DNA of 64,000 nt from Planctomicrobium piriforme (GTDB lineage Bacteria; Planctomycetota; Planctomycetia; Pirellulales; UBA1268), in NCBI GenBank assembly GCA_945861585.1, contig CAMAVC010000007.1:515-64514 (forward strand). The letters run 5' to 3'. Positions 8,143-57,789 of this stretch are shown piece after piece (the first letter of the stretch is position 1; the number at the start of each line of letters is the position of its first letter). The position numbers and the translations under genes are program-made. The notes below the pieces were generated by a model that saw only the letters and a list, made by a program, of their open reading frames with translations, was not told where the DNA came from and searched no databases.

Positions 8143-8269
8143 GGCGTTGCCCGTGCCGATCTGCAAGTGCGCCGGCTCGGGGTTACCCCGTACCATCTCG
8201 CCGGACGCTCGCTGCGGGCTGGCTGTCGCGCCGTCGCCGCCGTCCCGGCGTCGTCTCCGGCTTACAGTC

Positions 8270-8292
8270 GCCGGGCAAAGCCCGGCTCCCAC
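8270..8292 (-). repeat. GTGG-type REP
   Basis: Minus strand reads GTGG-GA-GCCGGGC-TTT-GCCCGGC. Confidence 0.65.
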
Positions 8293-8300
8293 GCCTTCGG

Positions 8301-8383
8301 CGTCAGGGCCGGAAGCCCGGGTGAACACCGGCCGACGGAGGTCGGCCAAGGGAAAATGGCAGGACGCCATGTTTCCCGTGAAG
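8301..8383 (+). repeat. ~85-nt three-hairpin repeat (family 2), copy 1
   Basis: Reverse-complement homolog at 15240-15322. Confidence 0.85.
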
Positions 8384-8436
8384 TGGCCCAGATACGCCGG
8401 CTCAACGGTAGGGGTAACCCCTCGCCTCCCCGTCTG

Positions 8437-8517
8437 GAAGCCCGAGGCGTGAGCCGAAGGGAATACGCGTCGTGTTTCGCCACCGGGGCATCCTCTCGGC
8501 TTACGCCTCGGGCTTTC
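8437..8517. repeat. REP-doublet-like inverted repeat
   Basis: AAGCCCGAGGCGTGAGCCGA ... TCGGCTTACGCCTCGGGCTT arms around a short spacer. Confidence 0.8.
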
Positions 8518-8523
8518 GTTGAA

Positions 8524-8672
8524 GAGGCTTCGGGCTCCCCGTGTCCCGCTCGCCGGCGTATGTGACGAGCGAAGCCATGGATGGCGCAGCGCAGGCAAAT
8601 CCGAGTGAGCCGGAGCCTGGAGGGCGGAGGCGAACGTCCGGCGACGGGACATGGGGAGCCTGAAGCCGGCGC
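8524..8672 (-). repeat. ~150-nt structured repeat copy A2 (complete); a further partial arm at 8682-8720
   Basis: Aligns end to end with copies at 15371, 25580, 25793 and 44206. Confidence 0.92.
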
Positions 8673-8720
8673 GCGCCCAACGAGGCGAACGTCCTGCGAG
8701 GCGGTATGGGGCAACCCCGA

Positions 8721-9863
8721 TCACGCCAGCTCATCCAGCCAGGCGCGGATTTCGTTTTCGTATTCGCTCGCCAGGCCGCCCACGATCAGTTGGCGGTGGA
8801 AGCTCGCCGCGCCCCCCTTGAGGAGGTCGGCGTCTTCGGCGCTCGGGAAGCGCTTGGCCGGATCGGCGGCGATCATGCCCCGGCAGAAGTTCATCAGGAG
8901 CTCGTTGCAGGTGACGTCGGCCGGCAGGAGTTGGGGGAGGCGCTGGCCGAGCGACCGCTTGGCTTCGAGGAGGTCGCGGTAGGACTGGAGGCCGCTGAAC
9001 GGGGGCTGGCCCGAGAGCATCTCGATGAGCACGTAGCCGAGGCTCGCGAGGTCGGAGCGGGGGGAATTCTCCTTGCCTTCGAGCACCTCGGGGGCCGCGT
9101 ACGACGGCGTGCAGGTGCGGTTGGCCGGCATGTCGTCGAGCGCGAGTGCGGAGCCGATGTCGATGATCTTCGCGTTGCCCGTGCGCTTCACCATGATGTT
9201 CGAGGTCTTGATGTCGCCGTGGACGATGCCGTCGCGGTGGAGGGCGGCGAGGGCCGCGAGGCATTCCCGCACGATCGCGATCGCCACGCCCGGCTTGAGC
9301 CGCGACTGCTGCGGGCCCGCCGTCACGATCACGTTGTTGAGGTATTTCCAGCGGTCGTCGCTCACGCTCTGACGGGTGCGGTCGAGGAGTTCCGGAGCCA
9401 GCAGCCGCGAGAGGTCGTAGCCGTCGATCCACTCCATCTCCATGATTCGGATGCGCCGCTGCTCGACGAAGTTTTGCACGTCGAGAAGGTTGTCGTGCTG
9501 GATCTGGGCCACGCGCGACGAAACCTGGGCGATCCGCTCCATCGCCTCGTCGTAGAGGGCTTCGGTTTCGTAGCGTTCCGGAGAGAAGATTTTGAGGGCC
9601 ACGGGGAGCGTGAAGCCGTCGGAGCCGCGCCGGGTGGTGAGGAACACGATCCCCTGCCCGCCCGCCCCCAAACGCCGGCCAAGGTTGTGGTATTCGGTCC
9701 AGTTGAGCCTGCCGCCCGCCACGATATCACCGTAGCGGGCGAGCAGTTCCTCGGGGCAGCGGCTGCCCACTTCGCCCGACACGGAGATCGTGGGCCGACC
9801 CTCCTGATAGAGCGTGGTCGACATCGAGTGGCCGCGGTCGTCGTCGTGGTCGGAGGCGTTCAC
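8721..9863 (-). CDS. Hanks-type Ser/Thr protein kinase, kinase domain only
   Basis: LGAGGQGIVF, VALKIF, HGDIKTSN, DIG, APE; GTG start overlaps the upstream stop (GTGA). Confidence 0.93.
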   Translation of the reverse strand: MNASDHDDDRGHSMSTTLYQEGRPTISVSGEVGSRCPEELLARYGDIVAGGRLNWTEYHNLGRRLGAGGQGIVFLTTRRGSDGFTLPVALKIFSPERYETEALYDEAMERIAQVSSRVAQIQHDNLLDVQNFVEQRRIRIMEMEWIDGYDLSRLLAPELLDRTRQSVSDDRWKYLNNVIVTAGPQQSRLKPGVAIAIVRECLAALAALHRDGIVHGDIKTSNIMVKRTGNAKIIDIGSALALDDMPANRTCTPSYAAPEVLEGKENSPRSDLASLGYVLIEMLSGQPPFSGLQSYRDLLEAKRSLGQRLPQLLPADVTCNELLMNFCRGMIAADPAKRFPSAEDADLLKGGAASFHRQLIVGGLASEYENEIRAWLDELA

Positions 9864-15210: not shown

Positions 15211-15232
15211 GTAGGACAGGCTTCAGCCTGTC
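15211..15232 (+). repeat. GTAG-type REP
   Basis: GTAG-GACAGGCT-TC-AGCCTGTC; identical at 15331 and 58378 (-). Confidence 0.92.
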
Positions 15233-15239
15233 ATGCTGT

Positions 15240-15322
15240 CTTCACGGGAAGGCTCGGCATCGTGCCGACCTTCCCTTGGCCGACCTCCGTCGACTGGTGC
15301 CTACCCGGCCCTCCGGGCCTGG
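15240..15322 (-). repeat. ~85-nt three-hairpin repeat (family 2), copy 2
   Basis: Homolog of 8301-8383 in the opposite orientation. Confidence 0.85.
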
Positions 15323-15330
15323 CCCGTCAA

Positions 15331-15352
15331 GTAGGACAGGCTTCAGCCTGTC
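15331..15352 (+). repeat. GTAG-type REP
   Basis: Direct copy 120 bp after the first. Confidence 0.92.
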
Positions 15353-15370
15353 GTGCCTCACTCGCCCAAT

Positions 15371-15516
15371 CCGGCTCGGGACTGCCCATGCCCCATCGCC
15401 GGACGTTCGCTTCAGCCATCCTGGCTTTCGCTCACTCGGATTTGCCTGCGCTGCGCCATCCATGGCTTCGCTGGTCAAATACGCCGGCTCACGGGGCACG
15501 GGCAGCCCCTCACCTC
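15371..15516 (+). repeat. ~150-nt structured repeat copy B
   Basis: Shared core TCGCCGGACGTTCGC...TCACTCGGATTTGCCTGCGCTGCGCCATCCATGGC...TACGCCGG. Confidence 0.92.
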
Positions 15517-15558
15517 CCTGTACATCCTCGCCTCCCCGTTTGAGGTGGGACATCGCTC

Positions 15559-25536: not shown

Positions 25537-25579
25537 ATCGCAGAGCAGCGCATAACGACTCGCACACGGAGCCGGAGAA

Positions 25580-25730
25580 GTGCGCCGGCTGCGGGCCACC
25601 CGATCCCCCTCGCCGGACGTTCACTGCGCCCATCCTGGGCTCCGTTTACTCGGATGTGCCTGCGCTGCGCCATCCATGGCTCCGCTGGTCACAGACGCCG
25701 GCTCAAGGGACACGGGTGGCCCGCAGCCTC
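25580..25730 (+). repeat. ~150-nt structured repeat copy C1
   Basis: Same core; distinct self-complementary arms GGCTGCGGGCCACCCG/CGGGTGGCCCGCAGCC. Confidence 0.92.
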
Positions 25731-25792
25731 CTCGATTCGGTCGTGTTGAGAGTTCGGGGTTCGTGGGATTGCTGAGGCGCCTACGAGTTGGG

Positions 25793-25942
25793 GAGGCGAG
25801 GGGTTGCCCCTGCCGTCGAGACGGCGTATTTGACCAGCGCAGGCAGGATGCCGGAGCGCAGGCAAATCCGAGTGAGCCGGAGCCTGGAGGGCGGAGGCGA
25901 ACGTCCGGTGAGACGGTACGGGGTAACCCCGAGCCGGCGCAC
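25793..25942 (-). repeat. ~150-nt structured repeat copy C2
   Basis: Inverted relative to C1; arms match copy D. Confidence 0.92.
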
Positions 25943-25999
25943 TTCGCTGGCTCCGATTGCGGGTGGTTATCGAGTGCGCGACCGCGTACAACACGCTGC

Positions 26000-43183: not shown

Positions 43184-44185
43184 ATGGCCACAGACGTCCG
43201 TCTCAAGGAGCAGTTGCCCGAGCTCACCCGACGGATCGTGGAGACCTACCAGGCGGTCCCCACGATCCACTATCTCGGTCACTGCCCGCTCCCGAACTAC
43301 GAGTCGATCATCGCGGCTTGCGAGGATCTGAAGGAGATTCTCTATCCCGGCTATCGGCGCCGGGAGAATCTCCACCTCGGCAACGTCACCTACCATGTGG
43401 GTGATCTCATCGACGGGCTGCATGACAAGCTCACCACGCAGATCGGCCGGGCGCTCCGGCACAGTGTCGCCGCGCAGCATGCGGCGGCCGAGCACGGTGT
43501 CGAGCCCCCTGCCCTGTCCGACGCCGTGCAGCACTGCACCGAGGAGGCCGACTTCGAAGCCCTCGGACAGGCCAAGGCGGTCGAATTCCTCGAACGCATC
43601 CCCGACCTCCGCCGGGTGCTCGCCACCGACGTCCAAGCTGCCTACGATGGCGATCCGGCCGTGCGGACGCTCGACGAGGTGATCTTCTGCTACCCCGGCC
43701 TGGAGGCCGTGACGATCCACCGCCTGGCCCACCTCCTGCACGCGCTCGAGGTGCCGCTCATCCCCCGGATGATGGCCGAATGGGCCCACGCTCGCACCGG
43801 CATCGACATCCATCCCGGCGCCACGATCGGCGACCACTTCTTCATCGATCACGGCACGGGCGTCGTCATCGGCGAGACCTGCGAGATCGGCAGCCGAGTG
43901 AAGCTCTACCAGGGCGTCACGCTCGGCGCACTCTCCTTCCAGACCGACGGCGACGGCAACCTCGTCCGCGGCACGAAGCGGCATCCGACCATCGAAGACC
44001 GTGTGGTGATCTACGCCAACGCCACCGTCCTTGGCGGCTCGACGCGCATCGGCCACGACTCCGTGGTCGGCTCCAACGTCTGGCTCACCCGCTCGATCGA
44101 CCCGCACACCACGGTCGTCCTCGAACGGCCAAAGCTCCGGATGCGCGGCGAAGCCCCGAGCCCGGAAGCGGACTACCAGATCTAG
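43184..44185 (+). CDS. cysE: Serine O-acetyltransferase
   Basis: [32 protein letters not shown]. Confidence 0.93.
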
Positions 44186-44205
44186 CGCGGGTGTCGTCAG
44201 TACGC

Positions 44206-44356
44206 GTGCGCCGGCTCGGGGTTACCCCGTACCGTCTCGCCGGACGTTCGCTGCGCCCATCCTGGGCTTCACTCACTCGGATGTGCCTGCGCTCCGGCAT
44301 CCATGCCTGCGCTGGTCACATACGCCGTCTCAACGGCAGGGGTAACCCCTCGCCTC
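44206..44356 (+). repeat. ~150-nt structured repeat copy D; partial inverted arm D2 at 44537-44574
   Basis: Full alignment with the other copies; D2 matches the end of A2. Confidence 0.92.
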
Positions 44357-44586
44357 TCGTTCTCGAAGGCGCTTGGAACTTTCGGCGGAGACGGTCGGTG
44401 GGCACGCGCAGAAGAAGGGAGTCCTTGAGGACTATGGGCGTCCGATCAAAACCCACGAGTTGTGGACTCTCAAGACGACCGGATTCGAGCATGCCTACCG
44501 CCGGCTCCGAATCCGGGCAATTAACTGCCGCCCTGCCGTCCGGCGACGGGATACGGGGAGCCCGAAGCCGGCGCGTCCAACGTCTC

Positions 44587-47639: not shown

Positions 47640-49100
<1,461 letters not shown>

Positions 49101-50091: not shown

Positions 50092-51623
<1,532 letters not shown>

Positions 51624-57576: not shown

Positions 57577-57621
57577 TGGAACACAAGGGAGAAACACCCG
57601 GCACATGAGGGCCGAGGAGGT

Positions 57622-57711
57622 GGCCTCGGGACTGCGAGGCAAGCCCCCCGGCGCGTGAGGGCGTTTGAAACGGCCTCAGGAACGCAAGGCAAGCCCCCCG
57701 GCGCGTGAGGG
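57622..57711. repeat. Imperfect 40-bp direct repeat, two copies with a 50-bp period
   Basis: GGCCTC...AGGCAAGCCCCCCGGCGCGTGAGGG at 57622-57661 and 57672-57711. Confidence 0.85.
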
Positions 57712-57718
57712 ATAAAAA

Positions 57719-57789
57719 CTGGGGAACTAGGATTCGAACCTAGACTAACTGGTTCAGAGCCAGTCGTGCTACCGTTACACCATTCCCCA
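57719..57789 (-). tRNA. tRNA-Gln(CTG)
   Basis: TGGGGAA/TTCCCCA acceptor, ACTGG-CT-CTG-AA-CCAGT, GGTTCGAATCC. Confidence 0.96.

Follow-up and report, generated by a model that had tools for sequence, protein, structure and literature searches.

Several intergenic regions of the window (the whole 64,000-nt stretch of DNA analyzed here) carry copies of one non-coding repeat with a unit length of ~155 nt, which raises the question of what kind of element this is: a structured RNA gene, a mobile repeat, or a by-product of duplication and repair. The preliminary description of the locus proposed selection on a Y-shaped single-stranded fold and recognized no named family. Our analysis places the element as an undescribed family within the known class of small structured intergenic repeats, and not as a new kind of RNA gene. 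No Rfam family matches the repeat: at gathering thresholds, a scan of the window gave two tRNAs only, and a permissive Rfam scan of a 3.2-kb locus with one copy gave nothing on the repeat. Literature searches turned up no account of this family.

A covariance model of the repeat, built from the five complete copies in the window, finds all five at 147-174 bits, and only 15-23 bits on their opposite strands. The strand given for each copy is the one that carries the G-rich sequence. The first complete copy (8520-8678, plus strand, 159.3 bits) has its GGAGG end toward a separate hairpin repeat, referred to as module B, and its CCGGC end toward the stop codon of the minus-strand gene at 8721-9863. 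The second (15362-15520, minus strand, 174.2 bits) occupies a tandem intergenic region, with the start of a 1030-aa ORF (15559) 39 nt downstream. The third and fourth form an inverted pair (25576-25946), in which the left half (25576-25734, minus strand, 167.0 bits) and the right half (25789-25946, plus strand, 147.4 bits) are oriented GGAGG end to GGAGG end. The fifth (44202-44360, minus strand, 161.8 bits) lies in a convergent intergenic region, behind a gene ending at 44185. Besides these, a split copy (8163-8432, minus strand, 42.6 bits) has a normal 5' arm (~8165-8219) and 3' arm (~8389-8431), and its Y core is replaced by a foreign core of ~170 nt (8220-8388). A truncated arm fragment found by repeat comparison within the window (8682-8720, plus strand) stops at the conserved GGACGTTCG motif; it immediately follows the stop codon of the 8721-9863 gene and is in tandem with the first complete copy. 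Another arm fragment (44536-44580, plus strand) scores 12.6 bits with an E-value of 0.36 and is 92% identical to 8635-8673. The covariance model and the repeat comparison thus recover all five complete and three partial or split copies of the preliminary description, and its junction motifs CCGGACGTTC, ACTCGGAT, and ACGCCG do not vary among the five complete copies.

The window also holds repeats of other kinds. Two tandem 50-nt units (57597-57696, 74% identical) adjoin a minus-strand tRNA gene (57719-57789). Direct repeats at 48630-48863 and 51151-51384, 2521 nt apart and 71-76% identical, lie inside two neighboring minus-strand ORFs, a sign that these may be paralogous genes side by side.

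A profile search of the assembly (3,668,697 bases, or 3.67 Mb, in 157 contigs, 94.9% complete) gave 313 hits to the repeat, 199 of them full length and mostly 154-162 nt long, and many of the 157 contigs start or stop inside a copy. The repeat was found in all 15 other genomes of the genus and in seven of nine other genera of the family; with one genome sampled per family, none of 16 other families of the order had it. Searches of viral contigs (0 hits) and plasmids gave no match. At least 80 public loci carry the conserved motifs, and their contig titles are those of freshwater MAGs of Planctomycetia or Pirellulales, except for two records labeled otherwise. Judging from this sequence distribution, the repeat appears to be confined to one family of freshwater Pirellulales and to be inherited mainly vertically. 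Within this genome the mean pairwise identity among copies is 78.6% and the median identity to the nearest neighbor is 94.8%; since no copy has a nearest neighbor at 99% or above, there is no sign of a recent burst.

What these divergent copies share is a fold. For the complement of 15371-15516, which is the G-rich strand, RNAalifold predicts a three-way junction made up of a closing stem, in which the outer ~40 nt of each side are paired, an inner hairpin with internal loops (hairpin 1), and a shorter hairpin 2. The consensus energy is -80.2 kcal/mol for this strand and -62.6 kcal/mol for the other. The model of the ~155-nt unit comprises 52 base pairs and one branch point, and its outer arms contribute 23 + 3 modeled base pairs with 92-98% of the cells paired.

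Covariation was assessed in an alignment fitted to the model, with 106 copies drawn from the window and from 83 loci of other assemblies. Standard pairs fill 94.3% of the 4817 cells, compared with 84.2 ± 0.3% in shuffles, and 36 of the 52 pairs show two-sided changes (17.9 ± 2.0 in shuffles). The refuting test set in the preliminary description was a larger alignment; covariation holds in this one, where none of 500 shuffles reached the observed value for any of five measures. It is present in all three helices, for instance as GC 32 / AU 29 / CG 17 in the closing stem, GC 46 / UA 30 / CG 15 in hairpin 1, CG 59 / GC 40 at a further inner-hairpin pair, and GC 82 / CG 22 in hairpin 2. An alignment of 197 copies of this genome made with MAFFT, and hence not fitted to the structure, still has 93% canonical cells (8904 Watson-Crick and 497 G-U of 10110). 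The pair tables also contain the arm pairs, the inner-helix flip from G/T to C/A, and the GCC/GGC flip of hairpin 2 that had been quoted from the window.

Covariation of this kind might be only apparent if the copies descended from a few clonal subfamilies whose founders were palindromic by chance, with no constraint on the fold. Two arm types do dominate this genome (~50 and ~35 of 197 copies), and the cells are not independent events: many are inherited within a subfamily or brought in by replacement of whole copies, so that independent events must be far fewer than covarying cells. Nevertheless, the same 197 copies show 116 distinct arm-pair combinations and 11 Watson-Crick pair states private to one copy, and many pairs occur in at least three Watson-Crick types, such as the closing-stem example above. 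Sliding the partner by 1-3 columns, a control that retains the relatedness of the copies, makes pairing collapse to 31-41%. Given this poor fit to the controls, and a strand asymmetry that it would leave unexplained, we consider a constraint-free origin most improbable. Selection on a Y-shaped single-strand fold, as first proposed, is supported instead by the three-way junction, the compensatory covariation, and the preferred strand.

The preference for one strand is nearly uniform. The fold energy is lower on the G-rich strand in 196 of 197 copies, with means of -86.9 and -75.2 kcal/mol for the two strands. On the G-rich strand, the non-Watson-Crick cells of the 106 copies from across genomes comprise 201 G-U and 25 A-C, those of the 197 copies of this genome (MAFFT, not structure-fitted) 497 G-U and 87 A-C, and tandem G-A/A-G mismatches occur at helix ends. 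The earlier suggestion that the mismatches point to a functional strand therefore stands, on both the G-U excess over A-C and the energies. Among the 197 copies, pair states seen in a single copy are evenly divided (12 G-U and 12 A-C), whereas those seen in at least five copies are strongly skewed (457 vs. 44). Because private states are even and widespread states are skewed, the filter would seem to act on propagation or retention, while new mutations show no visible filtering. A mutational bias is unlikely to have caused the G-U excess, since the C-rich strand is usually the non-template one and its deamination during transcription would shift the ratio of G-U to A-C the opposite way.

Whether the selected molecule is RNA or single-stranded DNA is a finer question. 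With RNA energy parameters, the z-scores of 30 of the 197 copies (60 shuffles each) average -5.98 on the G-rich strand and -4.74 on the other; with DNA parameters the strands are equal for the same 30 copies (-4.78 and -4.76). These modeled values lean a little toward RNA over single-stranded DNA, without deciding between them.

A bias toward one replication strand was considered as well: when 137 single copies were compared with the local GC skew, 68 were concordant and 69 discordant. As an orientation test this is uninformative, because the skew fails to track gene orientation (56 vs. 58 bins).

The copies are placed with respect to genes by strict rules. Genes were called with a crude codon-usage caller written for this analysis (2301 calls, 81% coding). 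For most copies (183 of 199), any overlap with a called gene is at most 60 nt; each of the remaining 16 has the 5' end of a longest-ORF call no more than 206 nt away, and lies at a miscalled 5' end. The 165 copies flanked by called genes fall into 70 convergent, 89 tandem, and 6 divergent regions, against a background of 391 convergent, 1361 tandem, and 392 divergent intergenic regions. Their polarity is also constrained. The CCGGC end tends to point toward the stop codon of the nearest gene, so that the C-rich strand is in the sense of that gene; this holds for 41 of 48 singles in convergent regions and for 38 of 57 tandem singles (binomial p = 0.016), the latter 38 at a median distance of 55 nt from the stop. 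Adjacent full-length copies are always inverted with the GGAGG ends facing (30 of 30 pairs), separated by spacers of either 1-14 nt or ~82-88 nt, and six adjacent pairs picked by eye from the table of other assemblies have the same arrangement.

Such placement bears on the possibility that the repeat is a structured RNA selected by the host. Host retention in place has been proposed for some REP, ERIC, and bcr1 copies. Here transcripts of the G-rich strand would arise by read-through entering from the opposite side of the intergenic region, or at a promoter within a neighboring repeat module, and would act as a barrier or processing site against antisense transcription into the 3' end of the gene, or as a 3'-end stabilizer, for which the host would retain the repeat. 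The strong polarity behind genes and the avoidance of divergent, promoter-side regions agree with such a role, as do the G-U excess, the tandem G-A/A-G mismatches at helix ends, and the strand difference in z-scores that appears with RNA parameters only. There is also a precedent in bcr1 of the Bacillus cereus group (~155 bp), which is transcribed and whose RNA fold is kept by compensatory changes according to Delihas (2011; PMC3184786). The same polarity, however, means that the strand in the adjacent gene's sense is usually the C-rich one (41/48 and 38/57), so that the proximal mRNA carries the weaker fold; in close pairs, moreover, only 1-14 nt separate the 5' ends of the G-rich strands, which leaves no room for a dedicated promoter. 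Private mutations pass without a strand filter (12 vs. 12), and ~200 copies per genome would be unusual for an RNA gene. Nor does the repeat behave as a canonical intrinsic terminator, a candidate that we rejected: the stem is not followed by a T-run (a U-tract in the RNA), and terminator-like sites occur at the frequency expected by chance (9 vs. 8.2 ± 3.2). On balance we regard a host-selected RNA as less likely than enzymatic propagation, but as a live rival, and the two are not mutually exclusive.

One observation on transcripts can be added. In contigs of a freshwater metatranscriptome, a single RNA run that holds part of the stretch (share 0.08) and is stored as contigs, bins with the repeat have depths of 18.5-53.7 and neighboring genes 0-7, values that are strandless, summed over many copies and organisms, and open to DNA carry-over, and that are no measure of the transcription of the copies in the window.

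Rather than being a stand-alone RNA gene, the 155-nt element is a module among others in a larger intergenic mosaic of repeats. Module B, ~82 nt long, is represented in the window at 8436-8517, between the GGAGG ends of the split copy and of the first complete copy, and the long spacer (~82-88 nt) of inverted pairs is this same module; the genome contains 381 occurrences of its 10-nt arm motif. The modules follow an order. Among 189 copies, module B adjoins the GGAGG end in 79 and the other end in 6, a small hairpin referred to as A0 is found at the CCGGC end in 56, and the GGAGG end is adjoined by module D in 29 (in the window at 44361-44402, plus strand) and by module E in 9. A truncated arm lies ahead of the copy in 13 of the 189, and its end is at the same motif each time. 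Upstream of the second complete copy, the mosaic at 15211-15355 (plus strand) consists of two A0 hairpins (15211-15235 and 15331-15355) bracketing another module (~15240-15325), which is related to the foreign core (8304-8354) enclosed by ordinary arms in the split copy at 8163-8432, an example of the same arms around a different core of ~170 nt.

This last module (8220-8388 and 15240-15325 in the window) is thus seen once as the core of a split copy and once free-standing between A0 hairpins, and a module of the 15240-15325 type is in tandem duplicate at the orthologous site of a congener (G012).

A separate ~87-nt repeat has both terminal motifs in common with the 155-nt element and likewise folds better on its G-rich strand. 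It has 32 BLAST matches in this genome (25 of them listed, some partial), for example at C58:11940-12031.

An ordered mosaic of palindromes could also be read as DNA-level architecture. For E. coli BIMEs, roles of the duplex or of extruded palindromes in interactions with nucleoid proteins, gyrase, or polymerase have been proposed. By analogy, the repeats here could be binding or cleavage sites for such proteins, and the complementarity of the arms would come from hairpin-templated repair or gene conversion and not from selection on a single-strand fold. The fixed order of neighbors (A0 at the CCGGC end in 56/189; module B at the GGAGG end in 79/189 vs. 6) is what such a reading would lead one to expect, and two features of the orthologous sites considered below point the same way, namely replacement of whole copies at fixed sites, which fits frequent conversion, and collapsed 21-nt hairpins, which show hairpin-mediated deletion. 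A strand-symmetric mechanism, on the other hand, does not predict an ~8:1 to 10:1 excess of G-T over A-C on one strand, and the two inner hairpins lie outside the large palindrome and yet covary. A purely architectural repeat is in our judgment very unlikely.

Comparison of orthologous sites indicates how the copies turn over. Of ten congeners compared at the site of the second complete copy (15371), six carry the element, one has a bare 27-nt spacer, and in the other three (loci L088, L094, and L095) the ~87-nt repeat lies between the same end motifs. The sites at 25576-25946 and 44202-44360 are occupied by other subfamilies in other species, and in one copy at an orthologous site a 7-bp stem is wholly swapped and still paired. 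Many sites stay occupied across species whose flanking genes are ~80% identical. Host selection for an element at these places would have the same effect, and the occupancy speaks for a host-selected RNA.

The closest genome (G004) provides a finer comparison. A 240-nt mosaic of G004 is missing from this genome (G000), and one full copy of G004 corresponds in G000 to a collapsed 21-nt perfect hairpin, which, from its sequence, presumably arose by deletion between near-identical arm cores. A strict pattern search found three further 21-nt hairpins in this genome. Because the closest relative has a full copy at one such site, these hairpins look like scars of hairpin-mediated deletion.

The 21-nt perfect hairpins consist of the outermost parts of the arms and are found on C6 (~8961-8990 and elsewhere), C2, and C101, in the usual mosaic context. 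Origin of the element by insertion into an abundant small hairpin was considered and ruled out, there being only three such hairpins besides the one at the G004/G000 site, all in mosaic context.

Across 11 orthologous pairs of copies from G000 and G004, 139 of 1098 paired positions differ, as do 71 of 595 unpaired ones, and the divergence of the element is equal to or greater than that of its flanks (84-95% identical). This equal divergence of paired and unpaired positions counts against a host-selected RNA. The double changes speak for it: 21 of the 90 changed base pairs went from one Watson-Crick pair to another, whereas by our estimate independent changes at 12.7% divergence would give ~9 double-hit pairs of any kind. 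The differences between orthologues result from compensatory change, from whole-copy replacement or conversion, or from the two combined.

A target-site duplication did not emerge clearly from position logos of the flanks, which are mostly other modules, or from a search for empty sites. The one near-empty orthologous site is the collapsed hairpin and not a pre-insertion site, and because no clean empty site was found a target-site duplication cannot be defined.

This genome has two matches to PF01797 (Y1 transposase), on C106 and C9. The C106 ORF (4488-5066, 192 aa; locus L086 1264-1842) is Y1/HUH transposase-like at 31.3 bits, above the Pfam cut-off and below the NCBIfam cut-offs, and has copies of module B on either side. 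This looks like the classic layout of a REP-associated transposase, for module B and not for the 155-nt element, so that HUH-type machinery for hairpin repeats would exist in the lineage. Homologues of this ORF were found in only 7 of 41 genomes of the family.

On C9 there is a Y1-transposase-like ORF of 261 aa (locus L085 1366-2151; NF047646 at 65.5 bits, below the cut-off), with a short inverted repeat on either side that has ~5 copies in the genome.

The 155-nt element itself is within ~1.5 kb of none of 28 Y1 (PF01797) loci from 19 of 41 family genomes, which are incomplete drafts, and the congeners G007 (96% complete) and G005 (94% complete) contain the element and have no match to PF01797. 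In this 94.9% complete draft of 157 contigs, no arm pair encloses 0.3-4 kb, the largest true spacing being 279 nt. The same draft gave no match to TnpB, reverse transcriptase, or IS110, and its contigs, many of which end in the repeat, yielded no autonomous insertion sequence that shares the ends of the element.

Taken together, we favor, with moderate confidence, the reading that the element is a REPIN- or MITE-like, non-coding and non-autonomous repeat, whose G-rich single strand is handled by an enzyme during copying or replacement. We infer that the selected form is single-stranded DNA rather than RNA and that propagation is enzymatic. The G-rich strand would be, as a single strand, the form handled when copies are made or replaced, most likely as single-stranded DNA whose conserved termini and junction motifs are recognized by an enzyme, as in HUH/Y1-type systems. 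Only well-folded copies would then leave descendants. The data themselves show the copies, their fold with its covariation and strand preference, the turnover at orthologous sites, and the placement rules, by which copies lie behind genes with one polarity, are paired with their GGAGG ends facing, and are combined with other modules in a constant order. Points against the favored reading are the Y1 loci without the element, the lack of a clean empty site and of near-identical copies, the z-scores that lean toward RNA, and the occupation of many sites across species.

A more far-reaching variant is that the repeat has become a domesticated, strand-specific module, its G-rich strand acting as RNA or single-stranded DNA to mark the 3' ends of genes with a fixed polarity, and is renewed at the same sites by a copy replacement that acts at the conserved termini through an enzyme outside the Y1/RAYT, TnpB, reverse transcriptase, and IS110 groups. 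We consider this quite unlikely; if true, it would mean that structured repeats are propagated or maintained by a new kind of system.

The family is also of practical consequence. Small structured repeats make up ~1% or more of the compact genomes of these freshwater planctomycetes and interrupt their assembly. Annotation would gain from a covariance model of the family, with which copies would no longer be taken for gene-specific regulatory RNAs. With ~200 copies per genome, many species, strict placement rules, and a three-way-junction fold kept on one strand through heavy sequence turnover, it is an unusually clean case, well suited to asking whether such repeats survive because they replicate, because they serve the host, or for both reasons, and a good place to hunt for the enzyme.

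Among known systems of structured repeats, an integron attC array is a series of same-orientation sites that separate cassettes beside an integrase. We rejected this comparison: the copies here are scattered over many of the 157 contigs, in both orientations and behind ordinary genes.

The REP, REPIN, and BIME repeats are closer. Like them, the element is extragenic, G+C-rich, palindromic, and present in hundreds of copies, and as in E. coli BIMEs it is combined with other motifs into mosaics of constant order. Within REP families, most dimers are of one inverted type, with few or no head-to-tail dimers (Di Nocera et al. 2013; PMC3733652), and the element similarly occurs in a single inverted dimer type without head-to-tail pairs (30/30). 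It is also lineage-restricted, long-lived, and inherited mainly vertically, with no matches on the viral contigs or plasmids searched, and the single-strand hairpin is likewise the form that counts. It differs in being ~155 nt long with a three-way junction, four to five times the length of a 20-40-nt stem-loop, and in having no invariant unpaired GTAG or CGTC tag at an end. REP and REPIN populations are served by RAYT (Y1/HUH) transposases (Bertels and Rainey 2011; PMC3116915), whereas the 155-nt element flanks none of the 28 Y1 loci and it is module B that flanks a Y1-like gene.

The repeat bcr1 is comparable in other respects. It is similar in size, with many dispersed copies and a multi-helix fold kept by compensatory changes, and its distribution differs between close strains, as described by Delihas (2011; PMC3184786). 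According to the same paper (PMC3184786), bcr1 has 5-bp direct repeats at its ends and its transcription has been shown, whereas no clear duplication was found beside the element and the transcript depth over its copies is strandless and summed. The two belong to unrelated phyla and are compared here by description and not by sequence, and the element is distinguished by its strict polarity behind genes and its obligatory inverted pairing.

Finally, the element resembles several bacterial MITEs. These, such as Correia/NEMIS, ERIC, and Nezha, are non-coding and intergenic, with terminal inverted repeats that fold into a long hairpin; different cores occur between the same ends, and presence or absence varies between relatives. 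The element, too, is intergenic with terminal inverted repeats folding into a long hairpin, its ends carry different cores, and its presence is polymorphic between close relatives. Its length also falls within the 100-170 nt of these MITEs (Table 1 of PMC3184786). It differs in that neither a clear target-site duplication nor an autonomous IS with the same ends was found. A further difference is that its arms vary between copies and yet stay complementary, which would be unexpected if the arms were only duplex binding sites for a DDE transposase.
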